Shown in pieces: positions 1 to 16,232 of a DNA stretch of 16,232 nt. The position numbers were made by a program, and so were the translations under genes. The notes below the pieces were generated by a model, which was not told the origin of the DNA, ran no database searches, and was given only the letters and a program-made list of their open reading frames with translations. Source of the stretch: a virus (taxonomy: Duplodnaviria > Heunggongvirae > Uroviricota > Caudoviricetes); IMG/VR virus record IMGVR_UViG_2802429241_000006, positions 1 to 16,232 of that record; one strand, 5' to 3'. Position 1 is the stretch's first letter, and each line of letters begins with the position of its first letter.

Positions 1-1131
1 TCAAATAACCAGTTTTTTCCACTCCTTACCGCGTGCGTCGTTGTAAATATCGGTCATTTTTTGATTCGAATGACCCAGCAAAATTTTGGTATCAATTCCC
101 TGTTCTCTGAACAATCTTTCTGATAAAGATCTTTGCTCATGGAAAGAGGGTGGAGTGCCATTAGCACGCCAGTTGTAATCCACAGAATCCCGGGCTTTTT
201 TAAATGCAACTGTTAACGTTGCTGGTTTAACCATCCCGCCGCGCTTACCCATCCCCTTAGCGTGATGATGGTGCAATAACCACGGACTAAGGATGTAATC
301 ACGACAGGATGACACCACGTCACCTAGGGTCAGATTTAATTTGTCGCAACGCAGAGCCAGAGGAATGGCTATCCGGGCTCCTGTTTTTTGCTGTTCGACA
401 TGAAGGTAACCATCCCGGATATCCGAAAACTGCATTTTGCAAATATCCGAAAGACGCTGGCCCGTCATCAGTGCCAGCAGCATGCCGCGCTGTAAAAAGT
501 AACCATCCTTTTCCGCTGCGTTATAAATCATCATCCACTCATCAAAAGTCAGTCGCTGTCTTGATATCCGCACTTGCGGTTTTTTTGCCGATTCAGCCGG
601 GTTAAAGCCTGGCGGGACATCACCCGTTTGTTGAGCCTCCCGGAAAACATCGATCAATACCTTCCTGAAAATTTGTCCCATTCTGTTATGTCCCTTTGCC
701 TTGTATTCTTCCAGCACCGATACCACATCTTTTACGGTTATGGCATCTAGCGGCCTGGCTCCAAAACGTTCATCAAACACCCTGAGAGGAGCCGCTTTTT
801 GCTTCAGCGTGCTGAGTTTGATCTCTCCGTTCTCATATCTTTCCTGTTGAATTTTTCTGTAATTATTCAGAAAAATGGAAACGGTTGATGCGCCGCCGGT
901 ATCACTAATAATTTTCTCCTGCAGACTGAGCATTTGCTCCATTTGTTGTCTGGCAAGACGGCTGTTCGCTTCTGCTGCAATGGTTTCTGCCAGTTTCTGG
1001 TCAATACTGCCGAGTCCATGATTTTTACCTGTGATGGGATGCCTGTAACGCCAGTAAACTTTGTTATTTCTTTTGTCAAAATACGGAGATAAACCCGGAA
1101 CATCGGTTTTATATTTTCGCGGGCGCGCCAT
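1..1131 (-). CDS. int: Tyrosine-type phage integrase (site-specific recombinase), 376 aa, complete
   Basis: Full ORF with ATG at 1131..1129 and TGA stop at 3..1. Lies at the edge of the prophage module and overlaps the excisionase gene. C-terminal region (LLGHSNQKMTDIY) is consistent with a tyrosine recombinase catalytic domain. Family assignment is from recollection, not a search. Confidence 0.85.
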   Translation of the reverse strand: MARPRKYKTDVPGLSPYFDKRNNKVYWRYRHPITGKNHGLGSIDQKLAETIAAEANSRLARQQMEQMLSLQEKIISDTGGASTVSIFLNNYRKIQQERYENGEIKLSTLKQKAAPLRVFDERFGARPLDAITVKDVVSVLEEYKAKGHNRMGQIFRKVLIDVFREAQQTGDVPPGFNPAESAKKPQVRISRQRLTFDEWMMIYNAAEKDGYFLQRGMLLALMTGQRLSDICKMQFSDIRDGYLHVEQQKTGARIAIPLALRCDKLNLTLGDVVSSCRDYILSPWLLHHHHAKGMGKRGGMVKPATLTVAFKKARDSVDYNWRANGTPPSFHEQRSLSERLFREQGIDTKILLGHSNQKMTDIYNDARGKEWKKLVI

Positions 1132-1357
1132 CTTCCAGTATCCTCTTCAAAGCAGGGTGATCTGTGGCGATCACCTCAGGCTTGTTTACCATTCCGACAA
1201 AGCGAGCGCGTGGATCCACTCGCCAGTGCCTTCCTACTTTTTTGGGGAGAGGAAATATCATTCCGGCTTTAGCGTATTTACTTAACGTACCCGGAGTAGG
1301 GACCGGTTCACTGAATTCCTCTTTTGCCCACTCAGTGAGCAGAATAAGTCTTGCCAT
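1109..1357 (-). CDS. xis: Excisionase (lambda Xis-like), 82 aa
   Basis: Small ORF immediately upstream of int and overlapping its start by 23 nt. N-terminus LILLTEWAKEEF...IFPLPKKVGRHWRV follows the lambda Xis pattern (LTLQEWNARQ...IFPPPVKDGREY). Confidence 0.75.
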   Translation of the reverse strand: MARLILLTEWAKEEFSEPVPTPGTLSKYAKAGMIFPLPKKVGRHWRVDPRARFVGMVNKPEVIATDHPALKRILEDGAPAKI

Positions 1358-1421
1358 GAGCGTCGTTCACTAATCATGGTCGCCGCCACTATAGCTGGTG
1401 GGCGACGACCGGGGTTGAACA

Positions 1422-3893: not shown

Positions 3894-4016
3894 TTTGTTT
3901 TAACCTCATTACAGATTTAAGGATGAACAAATCCCTGCCATTGCTGGCATATAAGAATCAAATCTGATGTATTCATTAAGCTGAATGTCGTATTGTGGCA
4001 GTTATTTTATTACTGC

Positions 4017-4238
4017 TCACCATGACTCTGCTTTTACAGGTAAACCATCACGACCAAGGAAGACTTTAATCATGGTTTCCTTAATACAGTGTTGTGTGGA
4101 AAAATCACGAATATAGAGCCGTTGTTTTTTAATGTTGTTTACCGAAGCAATATATGTTCTTCCTTTATGAATAACATAATCACCGGGAGTCACGCACTGA
4201 CGAGGAATCTCATCAGTTCCGAAGTGATGAGCAATCAT
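4017..4238 (-). CDS. kilR: KilR-like FtsZ-inhibiting killing protein (Rac prophage type), 73 aa
   Basis: Protein [22 protein letters not shown]...[18 protein letters not shown] closely matches my recollection of Rac KilR. The ORF track extends to 4250 (MEII...), but GGAG lies 6 nt upstream of the internal ATG at 4238, giving the expected 73 aa. Confidence 0.75.
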
Positions 4239-4804
4239 AATTATCTCCATTTTTACAAATGAACTTTGTTGATGCGGTGCCTGGTGCCTCCAGGTGACGT
4301 TAACCAGTTAACAATTAACGCCGGATACAGAGAATCCACCCATAACACTGTTTTTGGTTTTAACTGTTCCGCGTGCGCTTAGCCGCATTCACCGCATCAC
4401 AAAATTCACTTTAAAAAGGGCGGCAGAGCAGTCACGGAGTAAAACTGATACCGCCAAACGCCACCAGAAAATTGATAACAGAGGGCGTTGTAGCGGGGGT
4501 GTCACTTAAGCGTATGGTCAACCTGACAACCCGGTGTCCTCAACGGGGAAGGAATAACCCCGCCATACTTACCGCCGCGCCATTTCGCGGAGTGCCACAA
4601 CCGGAAGCGCACGGTCGACGAAAATTTAACGACAGGCTATCTATGAACCAGCAACCTCGCCGTGCGCTTTCGTGTTATGGTCTGACTTTTCAGGGAAATA
4701 TCCTTTCAGTAAACTGTCAGTGCCGGATGCTCACCCGTGTCCGGCGCACGCACTCCACCTCACCCGTGGAGAACTCCTTAATCACCAACCCTCAGGAGGG
4801 TGAA

Positions 4805-5080
4805 ATGTCGACTGAAAATGATGAAATCATTAACTCCCTGATACGCCAGATTAATAATTTTGATAAAGCATTGCAGCATGCTGCGGCGCGTAGTGATATA
4901 ACTCTTTTAGCAATTTCATTTCTTGCATCTGTTATGGATAAAAATGAAGTCGTACGACAGAGTCTTGTTGATTATATCGACTCGCTTCAACCCGGCACTT
5001 TCAATCATGAGAGCTTCAATCATGAGAAAGAGCATGTTAAATCTGTTATTAATTCTCTTGTTTTGAATCAAAAGAATTAA
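4805..5080 (+). CDS. Hypothetical protein, 91 aa
   Basis: ATG at 4805 preceded by AGGAGG (4794..4799) at 5 nt spacing. Only plus-strand gene in the early-left region. The 111 upstream in-frame codons of track ORF 4472..5080 begin with TTG, lack an RBS and are Arg-rich, so are treated as non-coding. Confidence 0.5.
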   Translation: MSTENDEIINSLIRQINNFDKALQHAAARSDITLLAISFLASVMDKNEVVRQSLVDYIDSLQPGTFNHESFNHEKEHVKSVINSLVLNQKN

Positions 5081-5390
5081 TGCTTTTTGTTGCAAAGTAA
5101 TTTTCAAGGGGTTCTATTCGAATCCCTTTCTTTTTCATTAACAAGCCAAACCCCTTATCAATGATGTTCATTAATTCCAGGAAGTATTTTTCATGCAAAT
5201 CCTGGTTATCAGAGAGTTGCTTCTCTTCGTACAACCCGATAAAGGCGCGACGCACGTTACCGGATATATTATCGATGGTTTCTTTTTCTACGGTACTCAG
5301 GTCAAGAGTCGCCAGTTGGGAACGAACTATATTCGCTGCCATTTCCTGGAATGGTATTGGTAAATCTTTAAATTCCATCGTCAACCTCAT
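5049..5390 (-). CDS. Hypothetical early-left operon protein, 113 aa
   Basis: ORF in the same orientation as, and tightly packed with, neighbouring minus-strand genes (stop of upstream gene at 5394). No recognisable motif. Confidence 0.5.
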   Translation of the reverse strand: MRLTMEFKDLPIPFQEMAANIVRSQLATLDLSTVEKETIDNISGNVRRAFIGLYEEKQLSDNQDLHEKYFLELMNIIDKGFGLLMKKKGIRIEPLENYFATKSINSFDSKQEN

Positions 5391-5393
5391 CAG

Positions 5394-5609
5394 TCAGTAG
5401 TTTTCAATCACTCGTGAAACGTTTAATGCCGCGCTTTTTGCCAGAGTGGTAATATCCTGCTCCGCTGACGCCAGTTCTTTAGAGAGGCGCTCTTTATAGT
5501 CAGCAGCCCGCTTCAGGTCATTAATGGCGCGTATCTTCCCGCACATCCATTCGTAAATTTCATCATCGGTATAGCCTGGTGCGATGATGATGGGTTCTGG
5601 TTTCTGCAT
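5394..5609 (-). CDS. Hypothetical early-left operon protein, 71 aa
   Basis: ORF on the minus strand, closely spaced with the downstream gene; coding-like composition (MQKPEPIIIAPGYTDDEIYEW...). No recognisable motif. Confidence 0.5.
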   Translation of the reverse strand: MQKPEPIIIAPGYTDDEIYEWMCGKIRAINDLKRAADYKERLSKELASAEQDITTLAKSAALNVSRVIENY

Positions 5610-5638
5610 ACTGATTCCTCGCGGTGCTGCTTCGCTTA

Positions 5639-5767
5639 TCAGCCGTTAGATTTTGCCGAGCTGGAAAGCGCCTGTTTAAACTCACTGAAGCTGAGAGCTT
5701 CTTCGCCTTTGGCAAGGCCTTCGAAGTATTCTTCGTAAGCCTTTTCCATGATTGTGTCGAAATCCAT
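5639..5767 (-). CDS. Candidate small ORF, 42 aa (MDFDTIMEKAYEEYFEGLAKGEEALSFSEFKQALSSSAKSNG)
   Basis: ATG at 5767 with AGGTGA RBS-like motif 5 nt upstream. Start lies 2 nt after the stop of the upstream small ORF. Below the track length cutoff. The overlapping 69-aa track ORF in another frame is Arg-rich and GTG-initiated. Confidence 0.3.
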   Translation of the reverse strand: MDFDTIMEKAYEEYFEGLAKGEEALSFSEFKQALSSSAKSNG

Positions 5768-5768
5768 A

Positions 5769-5924
5769 TCACTCACCTGAATTTCTTTCCTGCCAGCGAC
5801 GCGCACCAGATTCGGTTTTAAACGTTTTGCTTTTGGTATACGTCATCGCGGTGAACGTACCGTCCTGGTTTGGGAACACGCCGTACACCAGAGATTCGTT
5901 GTTGCCAAGATCGATAGTATCCAT
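5769..5924 (-). CDS. Candidate small protein, 51 aa (MDTIDLGNNESLVYGVFPNQDGTF...)
   Basis: Internal ATG at 5924 with GAGG 6 nt upstream. The track ORF extends to 6005, but that upstream part lacks an RBS. Confidence 0.35.
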   Translation of the reverse strand: MDTIDLGNNESLVYGVFPNQDGTFTAMTYTKSKTFKTESGARRWQERNSGE

Positions 5925-6216
5925 GTTGACCTCATTTCCCCTTAACGCCGGGGTAGCGGAACAAAAACCTGCTGCATAGTTATTAAAGTTGAACCCTGCC
6001 GTCATGTTCTTACGCCTCGGGCTGGCTACTTACCCCCTGACCACTGCCTGGTAACTCGAAGTATTGCCCTGCATTCTGTGGGATGGGGTGAGGGAATGAA
6101 TGAAGTTTAGAAAAACGAACTTTTCAGGTCAATGTTTTTTTATCAAAACATTTTAGGCAGGCAGCTGTTAAGCCATCACCACGATGGCATACAGTTAATC
6201 AAATAGATGAGGTTGG

Positions 6217-6855
6217 TTAAATATCTTGTTGAATTTTAAAGCATACGCCCAATATGCAAGATAGATCATCCAGCATAATTGAAGGGTAGCGAGGATTCGT
6301 GGGGACTAAAAGAATATCCGGCCCTTCTATCTCCAGTTTACGAATGACAGGTGTTGTGGTCCCTTTGGGTAAGGCAAGGACAATATTTCCTGGTTGTACG
6401 GTTCGATCGGGATCAACAAAAACTGTTGAACCATTTGGGATGGAAACTCCCCCACCAGATGTTGACATACTGTCACTCTCTAGAACAACTGCAAAGGTAT
6501 TGGCCGGGATTTCTCCGACAAGCTGCACACAAGAGGTTATTGAGGAATTTTTCATATAATCACTCCAGCTTGCTGCCTGCTGAAGTGATAGTAGCGGAAC
6601 CGTTTTTATCGGCGGTAAAGATAGATCAAGCGAATCACCTGTATTTAACTCTCCTCCATTAAGAAGCCAATTTTCGTTTACTTTCAATATCTTTGCCAGT
6701 GAAGTTATGTAACGCGAGGACGGCGCTCCTCCACCGTTCATCCATTGACTTACGGAGCCTTTTGATGCGCCAGTGGCATTGACAAGGTCTTTGCCCTTCA
6801 GGTTTAGCGCATGCATACGTTGGGTTATGCGTTCAGATATTGTTTGCTTGCTCAT
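6217..6855 (-). CDS. cI: Phage CI-like repressor, 212 aa (XRE-type HTH plus LexA/S24 peptidase domain)
   Basis: N-terminal HTH (GKDLVNATGASKGSVSQWMNG). C-terminal S24 signature with Ser in ESDSMS and a downstream Lys (VIRKL). Divergently placed relative to the Cro-like gene, a classic immunity-region layout. Confidence 0.85.
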   Translation of the reverse strand: MSKQTISERITQRMHALNLKGKDLVNATGASKGSVSQWMNGGGAPSSRYITSLAKILKVNENWLLNGGELNTGDSLDLSLPPIKTVPLLSLQQAASWSDYMKNSSITSCVQLVGEIPANTFAVVLESDSMSTSGGGVSIPNGSTVFVDPDRTVQPGNIVLALPKGTTTPVIRKLEIEGPDILLVPTNPRYPSIMLDDLSCILGVCFKIQQDI

Positions 6856-6888
6856 GTTTTGATTTTAAAACACAGATGGTTTTGTTTC

Positions 6889-6917
6889 TTGACTTTCTTT
6901 GGTTTTGATTATTAAAC
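6889..6917 (+). promoter_or_regulatory. Candidate PR-like sigma70 promoter for the rightward early operon
   Basis: TTGACT at 6889..6894 and a TATTAA-like -10 about 15-16 bp downstream, ahead of the cro-like RBS (GGAG 6937..6940). GTTTTGATT occurs at 6856..6864 and 6902..6910, flanking the -35. Prediction by eye only. Confidence 0.3.
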
Positions 6918-6946
6918 TTTTGACGTTCAGTTTTATGGAGCGACTC

Positions 6947-7177
6947 ATGAAAAAATCAGAAGTATTAGGCTATTTTGGCGGAGTTGTTAAAACAGCCGCA
7001 GCTCTAGGAACGTCAAAAACCACAGTCAGCATGTGGGGGGAAGAGGTTCCGTGGAAATGGGCGTTGCTAATTCAGGCAGTCACTGCCGGGGCGCTCAAAT
7101 ATGAGTTACACATACCGACGGTTGTCATTCCCGGTTCTGATCATAATCCGCCTTCTAACCAAGGGGGGGATTCATGA
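6947..7177 (+). CDS. Cro-like / YdaS-family small DNA-binding regulator, 76 aa
   Basis: ATG at 6947 with GGAG 6 nt upstream. Divergent from the CI-like repressor. Small protein with an HTH-like region (KTAAALGTSKTTVSMWG). Stop overlaps the next gene start (ATGA at 7174..7177). Confidence 0.6.
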   Translation: MKKSEVLGYFGGVVKTAAALGTSKTTVSMWGEEVPWKWALLIQAVTAGALKYELHIPTVVIPGSDHNPPSNQGGDS

Positions 7178-7599
7178 AAATCAAGCATGAACACATCCGC
7201 ATGGCGATGAATGCCTGGGCGCGTCCTGATGGCGAAAAAGTTCCAGCAGCTGGAATAACCCAGGCTTATTTTGAGTTGGGTATGACGTTTCCTGAACTGT
7301 ATGACGATAGCCATCCGGAAGCCCTGGCTCGCAATACCCAGAAAATTTTCCGCTGGGTAGAGAAAGACACCCCTGATGCAGTTGAAAAAATTCAGGCGTT
7401 GTTACCAGCGATCGAAAAGGCAATGCCACCTTTGCTGGTGGCCAGAATGCGCAGCCACAGTTCAGCTTATTTTCGGGAGCTGGTGGAGACGCGGGAGCGA
7501 CTGGTGAGAGACGCTGATGATTTTGTCGCAGTGGCAATCGCCGGTTTCAATCAGATGAACCGTGGTGGCCCGGCAGGAAATGCTGTGGCAGTACATTGA
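7174..7599 (+). CDS. ydaT: YdaT-like protein, 141 aa (CII-like early regulator; annotated as toxin YdaT family in databases)
   Basis: N-terminus MKIKHEHI matches my recollection of Rac YdaT. Translationally coupled to the Cro-like gene. Sits in the position lambda cII occupies. Confidence 0.6.
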   Translation: MKIKHEHIRMAMNAWARPDGEKVPAAGITQAYFELGMTFPELYDDSHPEALARNTQKIFRWVEKDTPDAVEKIQALLPAIEKAMPPLLVARMRSHSSAYFRELVETRERLVRDADDFVAVAIAGFNQMNRGGPAGNAVAVH

Positions 7600-7670
7600 C
7601 TGACAATAGCCATATCGAATCGCTTCCGGCAACTCGTGAGTAAAAAGATTCGGTATCAGAAGAGGTGAGT

Positions 7671-8741
7671 ATGGCTAACGCCTGGCTCAGATTATGGCAT
7701 GACATGCCAAATGACCCTAAGTGGCGAACAATTGCCAGGGTGTCAGGGCAGCCAATTGCAACAGTGATGGCAGTGTATATCCACCTCCTGGTGAGCGCGT
7801 CACGAAATGTCACGCGAGGTCACATTGATGTCACGACAGAAGATTTGGCAAGTGCGCTCGACGTGACAGAAGAGGTAATTGATTCAATTTTGCAGACGAT
7901 GCAGGGGCGGGTACTTGATGGTGATTTAATCACTGGATGGGAAAAACGCCAGGTGCTGAAAGAGGACAACGGCAATATTTCGCAAACCGCAAAATCTCCT
8001 GCAGAGCGCAAGAGGGCGCAGCGAGAGAGGGAAAGAAAGCGGGAACAAAATGGCGATTGTCACGGCGCGTCACGAAATGTCACGCACATGTCACGACGAG
8101 TCACGACAGATAAAGATACAGATAAAGATACAGATCAAGAAGATCAAAACACTATGGTCCATGGCGTAAAAAACGCCACGAACCAGGCAGGGGATGTTCA
8201 GACCGTCAATCCTGGTCAGCCAGCAGGCACGACACCGGAAGCCGATTCAGCGTATGCGCTGAAAGCCGATTCGGGCGCTGTGCAGCAGGTGATGACAGCA
8301 TGGACGGAGCAATCACACCAACTGCAGCAGCCTGAAGCCGATTCCGCCATTCAGCGGGAAGCCGATCGGGTAGTCCCGGAAAACACCGGGCAGCCTGTGG
8401 GACGAGTGGATTATCCGGATGTGTTCGAACAGGTCTGGCGGGAATACCCGTTGCGTGCCGGGGCAAACCCGAAGAAATCCGCTTTCAGTGCCTGGAAGGC
8501 CAGATTACGCGAGGGGGTGCCACCAGAGGCCATGCTGGATGGCGTGAGGCGTTACGCAAGATACCTGGCGGCTACCGGGAAAACGGGAACGGAATTTGTT
8601 CAGCGAGCGACGACGTTTTTTGGACCGGACCGGAATTTTGAAAACCCCTGGTTGCTCCCGGTAAGCGGCACGAACAACCAGCGTTGTGTTAATCATATTT
8701 CTGAACCGGACACCGAAATTCCGCCTGGATTCAGAGGGTAA
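7671..8741 (+). CDS. Phage replication initiation protein (O-like replisome organiser), 356 aa
   Basis: ATG at 7671 with AGAGG 5 nt upstream (track GTG at 7665 is an alternative). N-terminal region AWLRLWHDMPNDPKWRTIA resembles replisome-organiser N-domains. The gene carries internal iteron clusters as lambda O does, and sits after the cro/cII-like genes. Confidence 0.65.
   Translation: MANAWLRLWHDMPNDPKWRTIARVSGQPIATVMAVYIHLLVSASRNVTRGHIDVTTEDLASALDVTEEVIDSILQTMQGRVLDGDLITGWEKRQVLKEDNGNISQTAKSPAERKRAQRERERKREQNGDCHGASRNVTHMSRRVTTDKDTDKDTDQEDQNTMVHGVKNATNQAGDVQTVNPGQPAGTTPEADSAYALKADSGAVQQVMTAWTEQSHQLQQPEADSAIQREADRVVPENTGQPVGRVDYPDVFEQVWREYPLRAGANPKKSAFSAWKARLREGVPPEAMLDGVRRYARYLAATGKTGTEFVQRATTFFGPDRNFENPWLLPVSGTNNQRCVNHISEPDTEIPPGFRG
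7797..7867. repeat. Iteron cluster 1: four direct GTCAC(G/A) hexamers at about 10-bp spacing plus one inverted copy
   Basis: GTCACG at 7799, 7809 and 7830, GTCACA at 7819, and CGTGAC (inverted) at 7862. Shares the 21-bp string GCGCGTCACGAAATGTCACGC with cluster 2. Confidence 0.55.
8059..8150. repeat. Iteron cluster 2 (five direct GTCACG at about 10-bp spacing) followed by an A-rich tandem repeat; candidate replication origin core
   Basis: GTCACG at 8059, 8069, 8079, 8090 and 8100. Directly followed by GATAAAGATACA x2 and GATCAAGAAGATCAAAAC (8106..8150), resembling a DNA-unwinding element. Lies inside the O-like gene as lambda ori lies inside O. Confidence 0.5.
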
Positions 8742-8778
8742 CAGATTTCAGGTCATGGGGTAATTTTCAGGAGGGCTT

Positions 8779-9123
8779 GTGGCAAAAGTTTTTACTCCCG
8801 AACTGCGGGAAGAAGTGAAGGCGCGCATTGTGGAACTGGTACGCAGAGATGGGCGAAAAACGCGTAAACAACTGGAAAATGAAACCGGGGCGACGAGACA
8901 CCTGATAGAAGTTCTGGCGAAAGAGCTGGTAGTTAGTGGCGCAGTATATGGTTCAGGACATGGAATATTTCCTTCGGAGCAGGCTCGTAAGGACTGGGGA
9001 AAAGCCCGCAAAAAAATGTCGAGAGCGGCAGTGAAAAAGAAGAGCGACCCTGACCTGATTTATTCATTGCTAGATGGCGAAATACGCCGTTACAACAGAC
9101 GACAGAACATAATTTGTCGCTAG
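8779..9123 (+). CDS. Hypothetical basic protein, 114 aa
   Basis: GTG start at 8779 with AGGAGG (8769..8774) upstream. Lys/Arg-rich. Lies directly after the O-like gene, where a helicase loader would be expected; no P-loop motif seen. Confidence 0.5.
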   Translation: MAKVFTPELREEVKARIVELVRRDGRKTRKQLENETGATRHLIEVLAKELVVSGAVYGSGHGIFPSEQARKDWGKARKKMSRAAVKKKSDPDLIYSLLDGEIRRYNRRQNIICR

Positions 9124-9331
9124 TGCCGTCAGAGCGAAGTTATGCAGCGCATACTGGAATTTTATCAGGGAAATGTTCGGTATTTATTGAAGTGACGAAA
9201 TTAAAGAGCATTAGTTCAGATATTAATTGACACTTCGATGGCACAGGGCCAGAACTAGACTGGTTGTCAGCTTTGAGCCTGGTGAACGTTGGTATCGTTA
9301 GTTTGTATTAATCAACGGAGAATAGGCCAAA

Positions 9332-9361
9332 TGACTTTTCTTTGCCTCTTTTAATTATAAT
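9332..9361 (+). promoter_or_regulatory. Candidate sigma70 promoter for the large NTPase gene
   Basis: Perfect TATAAT at 9356..9361 with TGACTT/GACTTT -35-like hexamer 17-18 bp upstream, in the AT-rich intergenic region 9124..9429. Prediction by eye. Confidence 0.3.
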
Positions 9362-9429
9362 TCAAGTTCAATTGATTACATTGAAGTACTAATGTGAGTC
9401 TGTCAAACAAATAGCTCAAGGAATAGGTC

Positions 9430-12228
9430 ATGTGGGGAAGTGAAAACAAACAAAATCTGGACGTACTGGATCCTGTGCAGTTGGCGCGTATCAAAGCGGT
9501 ACACCGGGGGTTCCTTTACCAGCATCTTTACGCTGTAGGCTGCTTACTTTTGGCGCAGAGGGCTGCTATGGACTCAGTAACTGTCGAGCTTGATGAGGAT
9601 ATTGAGCTGAAATCCAAACAGGAATGTCTCTACATTCAGGTTAAAACCCGTTCAAAACCTATTATGCCCAACGATGTGTCAGGGGCTCTTGAGCGATTTG
9701 TAAAGCTCAGAAATGAGCATACTTCGGCAAACCGCGAAGGGGTGGCTTCTTTTGTGATTATTGTAAACCAGGCGCCTGGACCGCTGCTTCAGAAGATGAT
9801 TGACGATAAAAAGCTTCCTTCTGATGTTCTCATTGTCTGGCCCCAGTCGACAGCTGGACGTCACCCGGCACTTCCGCCCGCATGGAGTACTCTGGCTGAT
9901 GCGGCCACATGGTGTATCGCAGAAGCAGAAAAGCTGAAATTTTCACTATTGTCCCCAGAATCCTTGATTTGGAAGTTAGCAGGGTTGGTTCAGCTTGCCG
10001 CCACCGGAGGCGATACCAATGGGCAACATACGTTTTTCACGGAAGAACTTACTGAACTATTTGAACAGTTGATCGTTCAGCTACAGGACTTTCCTGCGCC
10101 ACCAGCACTGTACCGTCCACAAAACGAAGAACCTTCTCTCACATCTGGTGAGCGGATCCGTATCCTTTGTGGGCTCTCAGGTGCAGGCAAGACAGCTTGG
10201 GCCGCACAGGCCGCATTACACTCCACTGCACTTTGTGCTTATTACGACACCGGTGATCTTCCCGGTCCAGCTCTGGCCAGTACGCTGGTGCGCGAGATGG
10301 TTGCTAGATTTACAGCCCGTGACCAAAACGGTTTGCGCAGGATTTTGCTCCCCGGTGCCAGTGGTTTTGAGGCTCTTAGGAGTTTTGATACCTACCTGAA
10401 AGAGCACGGTACCACCTTGGTGCTGGTTCTGGATAACGCCCATCGTGTGCCTGCGGAAAATCTACGGGATGTTCTGAATGCAACTACACATATTCGTTTT
10501 GTGCTGTTGTGCCAGCCTCACGAAAACGTTCGCGAACTGGAGGTCATGACGGGGCTACAGCGCGAGAGCCTGCAGGGATGGAATCTCGATACGGTAGCTG
10601 TCGTTGTAAACGATATCGGAGGATTTGCCACCGCCATGGGATACGAGCAGCTACGGGCTTACACTGGTGGTCTTCCCCTGTATGTAGAGAGCGCCGCAAA
10701 AATCGCCGTTTCTGATTATGAGCGTAGTGTCGATGCTCTGTGTGCTGAACTCCAGCAACAAACCCATACTGCGGAAACCGCCCAAGAAATTATTCTGTCA
10801 CGTGTATTTCAGGGATTTGAATCACTACTTCAGAGCGCGCTGGCATTGTTCAGTCTCTCTGACGTAGGGCTGAGTCGTGAAGAGATTTCTACGCTCCTAA
10901 TCAATTCGCTGAACATTTCACCAAGCAGTGCGGCTTCTTTAATTAGGAAAATGCGCGCTACTGGCACTATTGAAATTTATGGAAACCATACCCTGAAGGT
11001 ACATGATGCTGTCAGGGGGCTAGGACTGCAACATCTGGAACTGATGGATCAGGGGATATCGAACAAAGCGCTACTAGCGCTGAAAGACCTTTTAGTTGAA
11101 AGTCTTCATAATACCCGCAATACAAAACGGTTATCGTTGTTGACTCAACTTTATATTAAGCTCAATGATGTCACGACGTTGATCGAACTCTCAGGCCAAG
11201 AAATGTTTTATGAGATGGGCGTGACGGTCGACATTCTTTCAAGCCTGGAGCGTGCTGCAACATCGGACTTATTGGGACCTGTTCATAAATTCTGGGCATT
11301 GGATGGTCTTGTTTTCGTTGAGCTTAAAGACGGAATATCCGACCAGATTGCTCAGAGGTTAAACATCATGGGAGCTTTACTTGCGGAGCACAAGTTCGGT
11401 TATCAAGAAGAGATGGCCTATGCAATGAAACGAATGTTATTTTCGGCAGAAAGCAATGATGCACGAGCAGTTCAAAAGCTGGCACAGGAAGTCCGCCCCC
11501 AACTCCCAGATGAAGAACATAAACGCATCTTTGACTACAACCATGCTATTGCACTCTGGAGATTAAAAAAACTCAAGGATGCTGAAACATTAAGCTGTAA
11601 TGTTATACAAGGGTACTATTCTTTATTTGGTATCACACCTGCTGATGTCATAGGAAAAAACGCCGACGCATTATGGAAAACTATTAATCATTCCGAAAAT
11701 ATGCAGGAACACTTTAAACATATGGCTGATGCACTGGAGTTGCTGGCCAGAATTCGTGATGCGCAGGGAAAAATGTCACCATTACTGCGTATTCATTCGA
11801 TGAAGTTCTACAATCTGGCCATGGCCCCGGAATCCATGGTCAGGGTGGGCCAAGATCTGGCGGATGAGTTTGTTGCCATAAAGGATTACGACGGTGCCAA
11901 GGAAGTCATGGAGCAACATGTCCTGCCGGTTGTCAATGAGGCAGGTCTAGTACATCGACTGATTCAGGTTCGAAGCCAGTACGCAGTCATATTGGCACTA
12001 TCGGGTCAGCATAAAGCAGCTGATGTCGAAATGCAGCGCCTTGCTCCCTATATCGAAGGCCTCACAGGTGTACAGCGTCAAGAAATCCAAAATCAATCAA
12101 ATTACATCGTACAGCTTGCCCATAAAGCAGCAAAGACTAAATTAACTGAAGTTTTTGGTGCGGTCGGCCGGAATGAACAATGCCCCTGTGGCTCGGGAAT
12201 AAAGTACAAAAAATGTCACGGTGCCTGA
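9430..12228 (+). CDS. Candidate anti-phage STAND-like NTPase, 932 aa: N-terminal PD-(D/E)xK-like nuclease region, central P-loop NTPase, helical C-terminal region, terminal SEC-C-type zinc motif
   Basis: Unambiguous long ORF with AAGGA RBS. Walker A CGLSGAGKT at about aa 248-256 and Walker B-like TTLVLVLDNAH about 80 aa later. N-terminus has a GF-x-YQ motif and a D...QxK pattern (VELDEDIELKS...LYIQVKT) resembling Cap4/Mrr-type nucleases. Final residues NEQCPCGSGIKYKKCHGA match the SEC-C metal-binding motif. About 570 aa of predicted helical sequence follow the NTPase. Flanked by non-coding DNA on both sides. Confidence 0.6.
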   Translation: MWGSENKQNLDVLDPVQLARIKAVHRGFLYQHLYAVGCLLLAQRAAMDSVTVELDEDIELKSKQECLYIQVKTRSKPIMPNDVSGALERFVKLRNEHTSANREGVASFVIIVNQAPGPLLQKMIDDKKLPSDVLIVWPQSTAGRHPALPPAWSTLADAATWCIAEAEKLKFSLLSPESLIWKLAGLVQLAATGGDTNGQHTFFTEELTELFEQLIVQLQDFPAPPALYRPQNEEPSLTSGERIRILCGLSGAGKTAWAAQAALHSTALCAYYDTGDLPGPALASTLVREMVARFTARDQNGLRRILLPGASGFEALRSFDTYLKEHGTTLVLVLDNAHRVPAENLRDVLNATTHIRFVLLCQPHENVRELEVMTGLQRESLQGWNLDTVAVVVNDIGGFATAMGYEQLRAYTGGLPLYVESAAKIAVSDYERSVDALCAELQQQTHTAETAQEIILSRVFQGFESLLQSALALFSLSDVGLSREEISTLLINSLNISPSSAASLIRKMRATGTIEIYGNHTLKVHDAVRGLGLQHLELMDQGISNKALLALKDLLVESLHNTRNTKRLSLLTQLYIKLNDVTTLIELSGQEMFYEMGVTVDILSSLERAATSDLLGPVHKFWALDGLVFVELKDGISDQIAQRLNIMGALLAEHKFGYQEEMAYAMKRMLFSAESNDARAVQKLAQEVRPQLPDEEHKRIFDYNHAIALWRLKKLKDAETLSCNVIQGYYSLFGITPADVIGKNADALWKTINHSENMQEHFKHMADALELLARIRDAQGKMSPLLRIHSMKFYNLAMAPESMVRVGQDLADEFVAIKDYDGAKEVMEQHVLPVVNEAGLVHRLIQVRSQYAVILALSGQHKAADVEMQRLAPYIEGLTGVQRQEIQNQSNYIVQLAHKAAKTKLTEVFGAVGRNEQCPCGSGIKYKKCHGA

Positions 12229-12505
12229 GTCTTTGTACGACCATGCAGGCCTTATTGTCTTGCTATTGCTCTTATGGTTCGCCTTTCTGATTGATTTCAT
12301 ATTGGCGAGGTAACGGGAGTTAAGTAGAATGGCTGCGGGTGCTTGAGGCTATCTGTCTCAGGCATGAACACCAAAGGCAGATAGAGAAAAGCCCCAGTTA
12401 ACATTACGCGTCCTGCAAGACGCTTAACATTAATCTGAGGCTCAATCTATGAACGGCAAATCTAGGTTAGCCTCTTACGAGCCGAAAGGCAAGGAGAAGC
12501 AGGCT

Positions 12506-12661
12506 ATGAAGCAGCAAAAGGCGATGTTAATCGCCCTGATCGTCATCTGTTTAACCGTCATAGTGACGGCACTGGTAACGAGGAAAGACCTCTGCGAGGT
12601 ACGAATCCGAACCGGCCAGACGGAGGTCGCTGTCTTCACAGCTTACGAACCTGAGGAGTAA
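12506..12661 (+). CDS. hokD: Hok/Gef-family membrane toxin, 51 aa (HokD/RelF-like)
   Basis: Protein MKQQKAMLIALIVICLTVIVTALVTRKDLCEVRIRTGQTEVAVFTAYEPEE matches my recollection of E. coli HokD (RelF). AAGGAG RBS lies upstream of the ATG at 12506. The track ORF's 19-codon in-frame extension from 12449 is unlikely to be translated. Confidence 0.85.
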   Translation: MKQQKAMLIALIVICLTVIVTALVTRKDLCEVRIRTGQTEVAVFTAYEPEE

Positions 12662-12730
12662 GAGACCAGGCGAGGGAGAAATCCCTCGCCACCTCTGATG
12701 AGTCAGGCATCCTCAACGCACCCGCACTTA

Positions 12731-12756
12731 ACCCGCTTCGGCGGGTTTTGTTTTTT
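12731..12756 (+). terminator. Rho-independent terminator downstream of hok
   Basis: Stem ACCCGC / GCGGGT with TTCG tetraloop (12731..12746) followed by TTTGTTTTTT. Confidence 0.7.
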
Positions 12757-12828
12757 CCTGGCATTCTGGTTTACAATTCGCACGTCAGCCTGAACACCTG
12801 ACACCTGCTGCGCCAGCAGAGAAAACAG

Positions 12829-13101
12829 ATGGCGCACAAAACCAAATTTCACAATTCTGATACCGACCTTGCCATCCGGCATGGGCGGCGTTCACACGCA
12901 TTTAAAACCGACTGGTACCAACACCCACCATGTACTGAAGAACAGGCCGAATGGCTAATTCATAACTACCGCAGACGCGGATACGAGATTAAGAAAGCCC
13001 TCAGCCTCGATTATCGTCACTGGATAATCTATGTTAGGCTCCCTTATTCCGAACGCCCACCGCGCCCATCCCGCACATACCAGCAACGGATCTGGAGGTA
13101 A
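12829..13101 (+). CDS. Small prophage protein, 90 aa, Rem-like by position
   Basis: ORF between hokD-like and ydfU-like genes, where K-12 Qin carries rem. Its stop is 1 nt before the next gene's GTG start. The Rem sequence itself is not recalled, so the name is positional only. Confidence 0.45.
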   Translation: MAHKTKFHNSDTDLAIRHGRRSHAFKTDWYQHPPCTEEQAEWLIHNYRRRGYEIKKALSLDYRHWIIYVRLPYSERPPRPSRTYQQRIWR

Positions 13102-13102
13102 C

Positions 13103-14152
13103 GTGCGGATATTACTTCGACCTGTTCTGGTACCGGAACTCGGGCTGGTGGTCCTTAGGCCGGGCCGTGAATCCATGCAAGTATTTCATAACCCTCGAGT
13201 GCTGGTGGAGCCTGAACCGAAAAGCATGCGCGGTCTGCCGTCCGGAGTCGTCCCTGCCGTTCGCCAGCCGCTGGCGGAGGATAAATCATTACTGCCATTT
13301 TTCAGCGATGAGCGGGTGATTCGTGCTGCTGGCGGCGCTGGTGCACTGTCTGACTGGCTGTTGCGTCATGTCAAATCCTGCCAGTGGCCTCATGGTGACT
13401 ATCATCACAGTGAAATCGTCATACATCGTTACGGTACCGGCGCGATGGTGTTGTGCTGGCACTGCGACAACCAGCTGCGTGACCAGACCTCCGAATCACT
13501 CGGGCAACTTGCTCACCAAAACCTGTCAGCATGGGTGATTGACGTCATACGCCATGCAATGAATGGCACGCAGGAGCGGGAATTATCGCTGGCTGAATTA
13601 TCCTGGTGGGCGGTCTGCAATCAGGTAGCGGACGCGCTACCGGAGGCAGTATTACGTCGTTCTCTGGGGTTACGTGCTGAAAAAATCCGCTCGCTTTACC
13701 GCGAGAGTGACATCATACCGGGAGAGCAGACAGCCACCAGTATACTGAAGCAGCGCACAAAAAATATTGTGCTACCGCCTCACGCCCACCAGCAACAGAA
13801 CCCACCACAGGAAAAGACGGAGGTCAGCATTGCCGTTGATCCGGAGTCTCCGGAATCTTTCATGAAGCGACCTAAACGTCGCCGCTGGGTAAATGAGAAA
13901 TACACGCGCTGGGTGAAGACACAGCCGTGTGCGTGTTGTGGTAAGCCAGCTGACGATCCCCATCACCTGATTGGTCATGGTCAGGGCGGAATGGGTACAA
14001 AAGCGCATGACCTCTTTGTGTTGCCTTTGTGCAGAAAGCATCACGACGAGCTGCATGCGGATACCGTGGCATTTGAAAAGAAGTATGGCTCCCAGCTGGA
14101 GCTGATATTTCGTTTTATCGATCGTGCGCTGGCAATTGGCGTATTGGCGTAA
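13103..14152 (+). CDS. ydfU: DUF968-family prophage protein (YdfU-like), 349 aa, with C-terminal HNH-like Cys/His motif
   Basis: GTG at 13103 with GGAGG 4-5 nt upstream gives 349 aa, the length recalled for K-12 YdfU. C-terminus CACCGK...HHLIGHGQGG...LPLCRKHHDELH is HNH-like. Sits in the Qin order hokD-rem-ydfU-quuQ. The track ORF start at 13031 is an unlikely extension. Confidence 0.65.
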   Translation: MRILLRPVLVPELGLVVLRPGRESMQVFHNPRVLVEPEPKSMRGLPSGVVPAVRQPLAEDKSLLPFFSDERVIRAAGGAGALSDWLLRHVKSCQWPHGDYHHSEIVIHRYGTGAMVLCWHCDNQLRDQTSESLGQLAHQNLSAWVIDVIRHAMNGTQERELSLAELSWWAVCNQVADALPEAVLRRSLGLRAEKIRSLYRESDIIPGEQTATSILKQRTKNIVLPPHAHQQQNPPQEKTEVSIAVDPESPESFMKRPKRRRWVNEKYTRWVKTQPCACCGKPADDPHHLIGHGQGGMGTKAHDLFVLPLCRKHHDELHADTVAFEKKYGSQLELIFRFIDRALAIGVLA

Positions 14153-14165
14153 GTGGAGAACGAGC

Positions 14166-14918
14166 ATGAACCTTGAAGCCTTACCAAAATATTACTCCCC
14201 AAAACCTCCAAAATTGAGCGATGACGCACCGGCGACAGACTCAGGTGGTTTAGCAATTACGGATGTGATGGCTGCGCAGGGGATGGTGCAGTCGAAAGCA
14301 CCGCTTGGGTTTGCCTTATTCCTGGCAAAAGTTGGTGTTCAGAACCCTCAGTTTGCGATTGAAGGTCTGCTCAATTACGCGATGGCACTGGATAACCCGA
14401 TATTGAACAAATTGAGTGAAGAAACCCGGTTACAGATCATCCCTTACCTTGTGAATTTTGCCTTTGCTGATTATTCCAGGTCTGCGGCAAGTAAGGCTCG
14501 CTGTGAACATTGTGCAGGTACGGGATTTCATAATGTATTGCGCGAAGTGGTGAAACACTACAGAAGTGGGGAATCTGTTATCAAGGAAGAATGGGGGAAG
14601 GAACTATGTCAGCATTGCCATGGTAAGGGCGAAGTCAGCACAGCGTGCAGAGGGTGTAAGGGTAAAGGTATTGTCCTGGATGAAAAAAGAACCCGGCTTC
14701 ATGGCGTACCGGTTTATAAGATTTGTGGGCGTTGTAATGGAAACAGGTTTAGTCGTTTACCGACCACACTGGCACGACGTCATGTCCAGAAGTTGGTACC
14801 GGACCTGACAGATTATCAGTGGTACAAGGGGTATGCGGACGTCATTGATAAACTGGTAACAAAGTGCTGGCAGGAAGAAGCGTATGCAGAAGCACAACTG
14901 AGAAAAGTGACAAGATAA
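14166..14918 (+). CDS. quuQ: Late-gene antitermination protein Q (Q82/QuuQ-like), 250 aa
   Basis: ATG at 14166 gives 250 aa, the length recalled for QuuQ. Four CxxC pairs (CEHCAG, CQHCHG, CRGCKG, CGRCNG) are consistent with the zinc-binding Q antiterminator family. Position downstream of ydfU-like matches Qin. Confidence 0.65.
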   Translation: MNLEALPKYYSPKPPKLSDDAPATDSGGLAITDVMAAQGMVQSKAPLGFALFLAKVGVQNPQFAIEGLLNYAMALDNPILNKLSEETRLQIIPYLVNFAFADYSRSAASKARCEHCAGTGFHNVLREVVKHYRSGESVIKEEWGKELCQHCHGKGEVSTACRGCKGKGIVLDEKRTRLHGVPVYKICGRCNGNRFSRLPTTLARRHVQKLVPDLTDYQWYKGYADVIDKLVTKCWQEEAYAEAQLRKVTR

Positions 14919-15647
14919 AAGATTTTCACCGAACGATGGCGACATAATGATTGTATTTTCTAAGGAAACGTGCAAAGAGTTTTCCAATGATGAGCCTTAT
15001 ATGCATACCGGTGGAAAATATCAATAAGCCGCGCAGAGTGGTTTTTTTGTGGACATAAACTTTGTGCAGAACGGTAACCATTCTGGTTGCCGTGAATGCA
15101 GTTTTTTTACATTGCTGGCTTTTTTAGATTTGTGTTAGTCATTGATATTAACAAGAAGGGGAAAAGACATGCTAAAACGGCAGGATATGAAGGAAACGGT
15201 TATGCGTGAATGTTCCAGTGTGATTAACCATATCATCTTGGGAAGCCATCCTGATGCAGGGAAGAGGTAACAGTAACGTGCATCAATCAGGCTATCGATG
15301 TATTACCGGTTTGTTACCCATGAAGAAAATTAAGGTGATAACGAAACTGATTTTATAGGTGTCTTGTCAGAGTGTTGCGACGAAACTGGTGTTGGCAGTG
15401 TAGGGAAAATAGTAGGATGAAAATTATAAATTGCTTTAAATGAGCTTGATTTCCCTCATGTTATGAGATATTTGTCTTATATTGCTGGTTAATTATGAAA
15501 ATTTTTGTAAATCTACAGCAATAAAATCCATATTAATTAAAGCACTAGATGCGTTTCTGATTTGTGCATGAAACATACATACCATAATGATTAATTGCAT
15601 CTATAATTACAGATACAGCATTGTGCTGTTAAAAAACTGGAGTCCCC

Positions 15648-15755
15648 ATGAATACATTATATGTAAGTGATTCAAATGAAAAATCTCATGACAGGAATAA
15701 AAACAATGAGGATAGTAAGGGTAAGGATAATAAAAAAGACAACCGGAAAGAGTAA
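15648..15755 (+). CDS. Candidate small highly charged protein, 35 aa (MNTLYVSDSNEKSHDRNKNNEDSKGKDNKKDNRKE)
   Basis: ATG with GGAG 6 nt upstream, inside an AT-rich region and followed downstream by a strong terminator. The low-complexity composition could also be an artefact of AT-rich DNA. Confidence 0.25.
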   Translation: MNTLYVSDSNEKSHDRNKNNEDSKGKDNKKDNRKE

Positions 15756-15790
15756 ATAATCTTTCCTGCATAAAAATACTAGGGTGGAAT

Positions 15791-15910
15791 ATGTCAGAAC
15801 ATCCAGATTTTGATGACCGTAAGCCTGATGATGAGCCCGTTGAGCGTCCTGATGAGGGGCAACCATTGAACCCTTTTTCACCGGATGATAAAAGAGAACC
15901 TATTATTTAG
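15791..15910 (+). CDS. Candidate small acidic protein, 39 aa (MSEHPDFDDRKPDDEPVERPDEGQPLNPFSPDDKREPII)
   Basis: ATG with GGGTGG upstream. Terminator hairpin lies about 50 nt downstream. Composition is less AT-biased than its surroundings. Confidence 0.3.
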   Translation: MSEHPDFDDRKPDDEPVERPDEGQPLNPFSPDDKREPII

Positions 15911-15962
15911 ATATAGCAGAATATAGCCGTTTAAAGTAGGTTGTGTTTTGTTGCTATCCTTA

Positions 15963-15992
15963 AACCACCTCCACAGGAGGTGGTTTTTTACT
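15963..15992 (+). terminator. Rho-independent terminator (plus-strand orientation)
   Basis: Perfect 10-bp stem AACCACCTCC / GGAGGTGGTT with ACAG loop, followed by TTTTTTA. Confidence 0.65.
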
Positions 15993-16046
15993 AATGGAAC
16001 ATTAATTGGTAGATGTGATTGTGTACGACTTATGGGAGGCTTAAGA

Positions 16047-16232
16047 TTATTTTCTGCCAATAATAAAACCAAGCGTTAACCCTATGCTTAGAGCGACCAC
16101 CACGCTAGTCAGTGGATAATTTCTAAATTTATCTTTAACGTTTTCTTTGCCTGCCTGCAAAGCATCGTCAGCACATGATGCATATTTTTTGACAGTATTA
16201 ACTATTTCGTTTTCAGATTGATTTGAAGTCAT
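16047..16232 (-). CDS. Small membrane-anchored protein, 61 aa as seen, possibly truncated at the window edge (ElaB/YqjD-like C-terminal helix)
   Basis: ORF begins at the last base of the window, so the true start may lie beyond it. C-terminus NYPLTSVVVALSIGLTLGFIIGRK looks like a single transmembrane anchor of the DUF883 type. Weak, motif-level assignment. Confidence 0.35.
   Translation of the reverse strand: MTSNQSENEIVNTVKKYASCADDALQAGKENVKDKFRNYPLTSVVVALSIGLTLGFIIGRK

Follow-up and report, generated by a model that had tools for sequence, protein, structure and literature searches.

What lies between the replication genes and the hok toxin gene of a Rac/Qin-type lambdoid prophage, and how does it come to be there? 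The question is raised by a 16,232-nucleotide (nt) stretch of viral DNA (IMG/VR record IMGVR_UViG_2802429241_000006, positions 1 to 16,232; hereafter the window), which as a whole is a Rac/Qin-type lambdoid prophage of Escherichia coli. Upstream of hok it carries a gene for a STAND NTPase of 932 amino acids (aa). We suggest that this gene with its short flanks is probably a mobile single-gene Avs-like anti-phage cassette, residing in a hotspot at which Rac/Qin-type lambdoid prophages exchange cargo by recombination.

The slot and the cassette

The breakpoints of the slot come from blastn comparisons between the window and five related E. coli prophages with other cargo. The left homology ends at 9275-9279 in the comparisons with L003, L007, L008 and L009; L006 has a left flank of only 75% identity, with homology up to 9178. 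On the right side homology resumes at 12252 (L007-L009), 12272 (L003) or 12318 (L006), and the right breakpoints are ragged across the related loci (12252-12337). The slot is bounded by DUF977 and about 80 nt on the left and by the hok/sok module on the right. The features of this region are as follows.

8779..9197, plus strand: DUF977 gene of the replication module, left anchor of the slot (Pfam PF06163, 3e-20)
9198..9279, plus strand: conserved spacer 3' of DUF977, ~80 nt with which left-flank homology ends
9280..12251, plus strand: cargo cassette, 2,972 bp, single gene (breakpoints against the five other-cargo prophages)
9280..9429, plus strand: upstream region of the cassette with the candidate own promoter, GC content 0.33
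9430..12228, plus strand: 932-aa Avs-like STAND NTPase gene
12252..12336, plus strand: start of the conserved hok block, where right-flank homology resumes at 12252, 12272 or 12318

An earlier interpretation made from the DNA letters alone (the sequence-only reading) had begun the region at 9124, a coordinate that merely follows a premature amber codon of DUF977 at 9121-9123. Compared with the intact 138-aa allele of L005, the amber is a single GAG-to-TAG change at codon 115, and alignment with the same allele places the natural stop at 9195-9197. The amber may be a sign of prophage decay, or the shortened gene may be a truncated variant. The spacer behind DUF977 contains a perfect TTGACA at 9227-9232, which is kept in prophages regardless of their cargo; a flank-borne promoter at this site was considered and rejected, as no convincing -10 follows downstream.

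For the cargo census we took 80 loci with DUF977 from an IMG/VR scan together with eight E. coli prophage loci and kept those with hok downstream. This gave 65 DUF977...hok loci, or 66 with the window. At a clustering threshold of at least 70% reciprocal coverage their cargo falls into 36 clusters, some of which have individual open reading frames (ORFs) in common, e.g. a DUF551-like family. Together with flanks that are 90-98% identical in related prophages around unrelated inserts, this diversity bears out the cargo exchange between the replication and Q modules that the sequence-only reading had proposed.

The alternative inserts comprise QueH, four small ORFs including a DUF7167 protein, a pair of genes for 320 and 333 aa, two small ORFs, and a 269-aa gene on the reverse strand. 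Cargo of defence type is represented by a 467-aa ATPase-Toprim protein (PADLOC HEC-04, 1e-25), a PD-Lambda-2_C-like protein (2e-41) with its 'cll' partner (2e-28), and a KwaB-like protein (Pfam, 4e-16); KilA-N, an insertion sequence (IS) transposase and an esterase are found as well. Since many inserts are small nin-like ORFs, QueH, KilA-N or IS, the slot is not exclusively defensive. Among cargo modules without a PADLOC match (L054, L079, L049, L091, L007) we noticed two versions of an NA37 nucleoid-associated-like protein with a membrane protein, and in the same slot, likewise unmatched, DUF6731 with a membrane protein and a pair with weak HEPN_RES_NTD1 and weak GNAT similarity. A 298-aa slot protein with no Pfam or PADLOC match shows a possible caspase-like His/Cys dyad by eye.

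The 932-aa gene is rare: it is present in 16 of 5,426 complete E. coli genomes, each time in the DUF977-hok slot (16/16), and is thus not a conserved core component of these prophages, so that the refuting case named by the sequence-only reading does not arise here. Composition, proposed earlier as a check, is not discriminating, with a GC content of 0.480 for the gene against 0.473 for the window and no deviant codon usage; GC and codon usage were therefore dropped as a mark of foreign origin, the gene being no more deviant than its neighbours.

The cassette consists of a 150-nt AT-rich upstream region, the 932-aa gene and a 23-nt 3' tail. A perfect TATAAT (9356-9361) and a Shine-Dalgarno sequence AAGGA (9418-9422) lie in the upstream region. 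The cassette also occurs in an unrelated island (L098), where window positions 9286..12252 are matched with 91.9% identity beside a P4-type integrase and a type I restriction-modification (R-M) system. Here 144 nt of the upstream region were co-transferred with the gene, and the -10 reads TATATT. The copy of Serratia ficaria has homology to window 9419..12252, and the Shine-Dalgarno sequence of the gene is conserved as far as Serratia. In the alignments with L098 and Serratia, prophage sequence takes over right after ...ATGCAGGCCT (12252). From there L098 and Serratia run on together for about 60 nt; this additional 3' tail (L098 5003-5070, L099 9823-9890; ACACATTCAGCC.GCAT..GGCT…) is missing from the prophage copy and may represent a terminator of the cassette that was left behind at capture. 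Neither direct nor inverted repeats were found at the cassette borders, which rules out transposon-like ends.

These borders bear on the way the cassette moves. A dedicated mechanism, site-specific or transposition-like, might carry it instead of homologous recombination through the flanks; the near-identical ends (9286 and 12252) in two unrelated backbones, with the right end common to Serratia too, and the integrase adjoining the cassette in L098 speak for such a mechanism. We nevertheless consider it unlikely. Besides terminal repeats, a target duplication is lacking; the longer tail of L098 and L099 shows the prophage copy to be truncated, which resembles a one-off illegitimate capture; the right-hand breakpoints of the other cargos are spread over 12252 to 12337; and the identity of the flanks is ample for RecA- or Red-type exchange.

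The 932-aa protein and its relatives

The ORF is real, as had been proposed, and is followed by 277 nt and then by hok. Its product has four parts.

9502..10029, plus strand: Cap4/LmuA/HamA-like PD-(D/E)xK nuclease domain, ~aa 25-200
10147..11049, plus strand: STAND NTPase module (nucleotide-binding domain (NBD), helical, winged-helix), ~aa 240-540
11050..12153, plus strand: TPR-like all-helical C-terminal domain, presumed sensor, ~aa 541-908
12169..12222, plus strand: SEC-C zinc-binding motif, aa 914-931 (PF02810, 7.9e-10)

In Pfam, Cap4_nuclease is matched at aa 25-77, AAA_22 (1e-8) and AAA_16 (8e-4) at aa 239-364, and SEC-C over the motif listed. Residue conservation was read from an alignment of 32 diverse homologues. 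The nuclease residues E53, D55, D57, E59, Q70 and K72 are kept (D…QxK motif). In the Walker A motif GxxGxGKT (248-255) G248, G251, G253, K254 and T255 are invariant, as is D335 of Walker B, whose second position is N336 and not D/E. At least 90% of the homologues also keep the SEC-C residues C918, C920, C929 and H930. The AlphaFold2 model (predicted local distance difference test, pLDDT, 80.5) begins with an α/β N-domain, continues with a P-loop domain to which helical and winged-helix parts belong, and has helical repeats at 541-908. Its best Foldseek matches are the STAND-TPR protein 6mfv (1e-12), Avs3 8dgc (5e-12), plant NLR resistosomes and EfAvs5.

The protein has the NOD/NB-ARC-type fold (NBD, helical domain, winged helix), a large C-terminal TPR-like repeat domain, presumably the sensor, and an N-terminal domain of immune effector type with intact catalytic residues. 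Judged by sequence and predicted structure, it is Avs-like, with a Cap4-type nuclease, a STAND NTPase of MalT/NLR type, a putative TPR sensor and a C-terminal SEC-C. Among PADLOC 2.0 models, AVAST types 1-5, PD-Lambda-4 and Upx gave no match at E <= 0.01, with Avs6-24 outside this comparison, and in NCBIfam only SEC-C-tail families and, weakly, DUF4297 were matched.

We found 902 homologues, and most of the best 120 listed are exactly 932 aa long. They are distributed patchily over Enterobacterales, Vibrio, Shewanella, Alteromonas and Pseudomonas; the protein itself is 98% identical to a 223-member cluster. The GenBank phage collection contains homologues on two metagenomic contigs only (33-39% identity).

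The neighbours of the homologues are often defence genes. Gabija adjoins the homologue in Yersinia enterocolitica and Vibrio cholerae (GajA 1e-238, GajB 8e-192), and the Enterobacter hormaechei homologue has a Gabija-type gene pair next to it, recognised by Pfam signature only. Directly adjacent in three genera, the homologue and the Gabija-type pair may travel together. The arrangement is alike in Yersinia and Enterobacter, with divergent genes and a ~345-nt gap (L010 4511-7655, L011 3754-7778, L015 3512-6656). AbiH adjoins the homologue in V. cholerae and Pseudomonas, and the Enterobacter homologue also lies near bSEFIR, on an element resembling an integrative and conjugative element. Defence neighbours (Gabija, AbiH, bSEFIR or type I R-M) are thus present in five of the six non-prophage contexts examined.

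This setting argues against a second alternative, in which the STAND protein would be a MalT-like signal-transducing regulator or a factor of the prophage life cycle (induction control, DNA processing) and not an immune sensor. Such a role is, in our estimation, quite improbable. The protein is without a DNA-binding output domain, and its N-terminus is a nuclease of Cap4/LmuA/HamA type with invariant catalytic residues. Moreover, the gene is missing from most related prophages and is therefore dispensable for the phage.

The ratio of nonsynonymous to synonymous substitution (dN/dS) is 0.19-0.24 among close E. coli copies and 0.06-0.18 at greater distance (gap-free 932-codon alignment across genera), by which measure the gene is under purifying selection. 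Together with the intact frame of 932 codons and the near identity to the large cluster named above, this makes it very improbable that the gene is a decaying relic without current function, even though some signs of decay are seen around it: the nonsense codon in DUF977 of the window prophage, the disruption of one of the 16 genomic copies by ISEc52, and the frameshifted integrases of the prophage's relatives.

The hok/sok module, the second slot and Qin

To the right of the cassette the prophage continues with the hok/sok module, a second variable slot and its right anchor.

12302..12330, plus strand: hok promoter, sigma-70-like, TTGGCG-17-TAGAAT (promoter scan)
12337..12511, plus strand: hok mRNA 5' leader / sok regulatory region (Rfam RF01794, full model)
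12449..12661, plus strand: mok frame, 70 codons, overlapping hok (ORF list)
12506..12661, plus strand: hok, 51 codons (PF01848, 3e-23), 51/51 identical to K-12 HokD
12337..12755, plus strand: full-length hok transcript, 419 nt (minimum free energy (MFE) fold)
12730-12747, plus strand: intrinsic terminator of hok (terminator scan)
12756..12811: second variable slot, empty in the window (blastn breakpoints 12749/12731 and 12755/12812)
12829..13101, plus strand: conserved 90-aa ORF, right anchor of the second slot, not Rem

The leader model scores 107.7 bits in the Rfam search against a gathering score of 59 (E 4e-24). In the MFE structure of the transcript (-171.8 kcal/mol, z = -8.15) the 5' end GGGUGCUUGAGG is paired with the 3' end CCUCAACGCACCC, an end pairing as in full-length hok mRNAs. 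A candidate Sok promoter, TTGCCT-17 nt-TAACCT at ~12492..12464, is a weak minus-strand match seen by eye and was not called by the promoter scan.

The sequence-only reading had described the DNA before hok as about 280 bp of non-coding sequence which might hold relE remnants or hok regulatory elements. Given the full RF01794 leader, the promoter, the mok start and the 5'-3' fold, these 277 nt (12229..12505) are hok regulatory DNA and not a relE relic, so the second of the two suggestions stood, and neither the description as non-coding nor the first did. RelE has no tblastn match in the window at E <= 10, the best RelB match has E 1.6, and by blastn-short only the 14-nt hok-proximal junction 12492-12505 is matched; a relE remnant in 12229..12505 was ruled out on these grounds. 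No terminator was found between the stop of the 932-aa gene (12228) and the hok promoter, hence read-through into hok is likely, echoing relBEF of K-12.

In K-12 (NC_000913.3) the gene order is relB-relE-hokD-rem-ydfU-ydfT. The Qin DNA matches the window by blastn at 12492..12755 and then at 12812..15002 (the latter with 88% nt identity), and the homologies of Hok, YdfU and Q to Qin have E-values of essentially zero and are therefore not due to chance. About 240 nt present upstream of the window hok are absent from Qin, where relE abuts hokD, and the DUF977 side is lost from Qin as well. Since Qin homology begins at 12492, 14 nt before the hok ATG, relBE displaced the hok leader too. According to a review, the integration of relBE in Qin truncated an ancestral ORF of ~70 codons (PMC6379469), which makes Qin the derived, rearranged state. 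K-12 relBEF can thus be viewed as a prophage hok/sok module, otherwise intact, in rearranged form.

The proposal that the NTPase gene occupies the slot of relBE holds insofar as relB-relE do lie directly upstream of hokD in Qin; the junctions of relBE are different ones. No relB or relE is found elsewhere, be it in the window or in the 88 related loci. The Qin-like gene order is upheld for hok, the YdfU-like gene and Q, and fails for the ORF at 12829..13101, which had been called Rem-like: the best Rem tblastn match (E 0.18) lies elsewhere in the window, and as the window shows no Rem similarity anywhere, Rem was ruled out as its identity. This 90-aa ORF has 76% aa identity to an intact 92-codon ORF between rem and ydfU of Qin, which carries no annotation in NC_000913.3 (L001 8310-8585, minus strand), and 40 related prophage loci have it at close to full length, with 74-99% aa identity.

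It is the second slot, not the conserved ORF, that rem fills in Qin; with rem in 16-18 of the 88 related loci, rem itself is variable cargo. The same slot holds RosmerTA in L004 (9373-11129) and L008 (3824-5580), with PADLOC matches to RmrA (5.5e-102) and RmrT (7.5e-10), and a 130-aa ORF in L005. In insert-bearing loci the two homologies overlap by 19 nt (12731-12749), which shows a copy of the terminator sequence at either border of the insert. Loss of different parts of one large ancestral region, to which the heavily deleted Qin might point, almost certainly does not explain the variability of the DUF977-hok slot in place of exchange, since clusters that are distinct at 70% reciprocal coverage (some ORFs being common) make too many inserts for one ancestral region, and the same cassette is present outside prophages.

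The remaining genes of the window place the prophage further.

1..1131, minus strand: integrase
minus strand: 823-aa exonuclease and cI-like repressor
4418-4469, minus strand: DicF small RNA (Rfam RF00039, 76.4 bits, full length)
plus strand, before DUF977: ydaS-like gene, ydaT and a 358-aa replication-type protein
13103..14152, plus strand: DUF968/YdfU-like gene, 88.5% aa identity to Qin YdfU
plus strand, after DUF968: Q/YdfT gene, 93% aa identity to Qin YdfT

The Qin regions dicF-dicB and ydfA-ydfC match the window at 4258-4790 and 5406-5962 with 87-97% nt identity; with DicF itself, this means that the prophage carries the Qin-type cell-division inhibitor module. Close relatives in complete genomes, L002 and L005, are 97-98% identical, and their integration site adjoins tRNA-Ser and mtfA. 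In the window Q follows directly after DUF968, as in K-12 Qin; in L002 and L005, the closest relatives that bear the STAND gene, a RusA gene intervenes (window 14058-14200). The window is therefore a mosaic that resembles L002 as far as ~14058 and Qin from there on.

Proposed mechanism and comparison with known systems

We propose the following mechanism, by analogy with Avs3 and Avs7, which are STAND proteins with Cap4 nucleases that tetramerise upon binding of phage proteins (PMC13581612). In the lysogen the AT-rich upstream region that belongs to the cassette would drive synthesis of the protein, which would stay autoinhibited. The TPR domain would then bind a protein of a superinfecting phage, and the NTPase module would drive oligomerisation, thus assembling the N-terminal Cap4-type nuclease into its active form. 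The active nuclease would cut DNA indiscriminately, so that the infection is aborted. As to its origin, a single event of illegitimate recombination probably brought the cassette into one prophage lineage, and the cassette and the alternative cargos would since have been swapped between prophages by homologous recombination via the conserved flanks. More speculatively, the SEC-C zinc tail might recruit a host partner of the SecA-tail type (the ribosome or SecB), as Avs7 uses EF-Tu.

Several observations weigh against this picture. The left flanks of STAND-bearing prophages are nearly identical (about 96-99%), those of other-cargo prophages ~91%; the STAND cargo is thus tied to one DUF977 allele, which indicates one acquisition with lineage spread and not repeated exchange of this cargo. 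The candidate cassette promoter is a -10 match alone, with no canonical -35, and was not called by the promoter scan, so that of the own promoter suggested earlier for the gene the perfect TATAAT is what stands. Walker B has D-N rather than D-D/E, and hydrolysis is therefore possibly slow or absent. Among solved structures (PDB, searched with the single sequence and a profile), the sole sequence relatives are the C-terminal SEC-C peptides of SecA and YchJ. PADLOC 2.0 assigns no family at E <= 0.01, apart from weak LmuA, E2, HamA and SEC-C-region fragments. The Serratia homologue lies among metabolic genes, without defence neighbours. Finally, literature searches, which did not extend to supplementary clade tables, found no paper naming the family or describing the DUF977-hok slot.

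If the cassette is protective, a compact 932-aa STAND sensor with a Cap4 nuclease and an unusual SEC-C zinc tail joins the Avs repertoire. A clone of 3 kb takes in the cassette with its own upstream region and makes the trigger easy to hunt for, and the slots on either side of hok/sok lend themselves to discovery, with several uncharacterised two-gene modules among their cargo. A bolder reading, that the region of DUF977, hok/sok and the 90-aa ORF is an undescribed double defence hotspot and that the protein founds a new functional Avs family with its own phage trigger, we put forward only tentatively and regard as rather doubtful. Neither defence hotspots in prophages nor Avs proteins are new as concepts, 198 defence-associated STAND clades having already been counted (Lee et al. 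2026, PMC13581612), and the cassette is a clear but unsurprising case of the swapping of defence genes at prophage hotspots.

The nearest known counterparts of the protein, SeAvs3 (PDB 8dgc) and SeAvs7 (PMC13581612), likewise have Cap4-type nuclease effectors; there is no detectable sequence similarity between them and the 932-aa protein. The latter is also much shorter than the solved SeAvs3 chain of 2,028 residues, has the Walker B D-N unlike SeAvs3 and SeAvs7, and bears a SEC-C zinc motif, which PMC13581612 mentions for no Avs; we found no known role of such a tail in any Avs. MalT and PH0952 (PDB 8bob, 6mfv) are STAND NTPases with TPR/SUPR sensors but lack a nuclease effector, and MalT, whose C-terminus is a LuxR DNA-binding domain, acts as a regulator and does not belong to the mobile defence genes. 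With Lamassu LmuA, CBASS Cap4 and Hachiman HamA the resemblance is confined to the nuclease domain, and the partner genes of these systems (the SMC protein LmuB; CD-NTase and SAVED; the helicase HamB) are not in the cassette, which is a single-gene unit.

As a locus, the slot is similar to the P2/P4-type hotspots, in which conserved phage genes also flank a slot with many alternative inserts (PMC9122126; Vassallo et al. 2022, PMC9519451); the cargo there is mostly small defence systems, typically each with its own promoter (PMC9122126; PMC9519451). It differs from them in the phage family, Rac/Qin-type lambdoid, in its location, with the replication module on one side and the DUF968-Q module on the other, and in being paired with a second slot, so that both flank a hok/sok toxin-antitoxin locus. 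As in the window, the foreign cargo of relBEF in K-12 Qin directly precedes an identical hokD, has the orientation of hokD and is likely to be transcribed into hok. However, relBE is a type II toxin-antitoxin system and not a STAND, and in Qin it took the place of the promoter and leader of hok together with the start of mok and the sok region, whereas in the window nothing of the hok/sok regulatory region is missing. With hok/sok of plasmid R1 and the chromosomal hok loci the module of the window shares its Hok toxin, a mok frame overlapping hok, the leader and the long-range pairing of the 5' and 3' ends; unlike these, it lies in a prophage, between two cargo slots.

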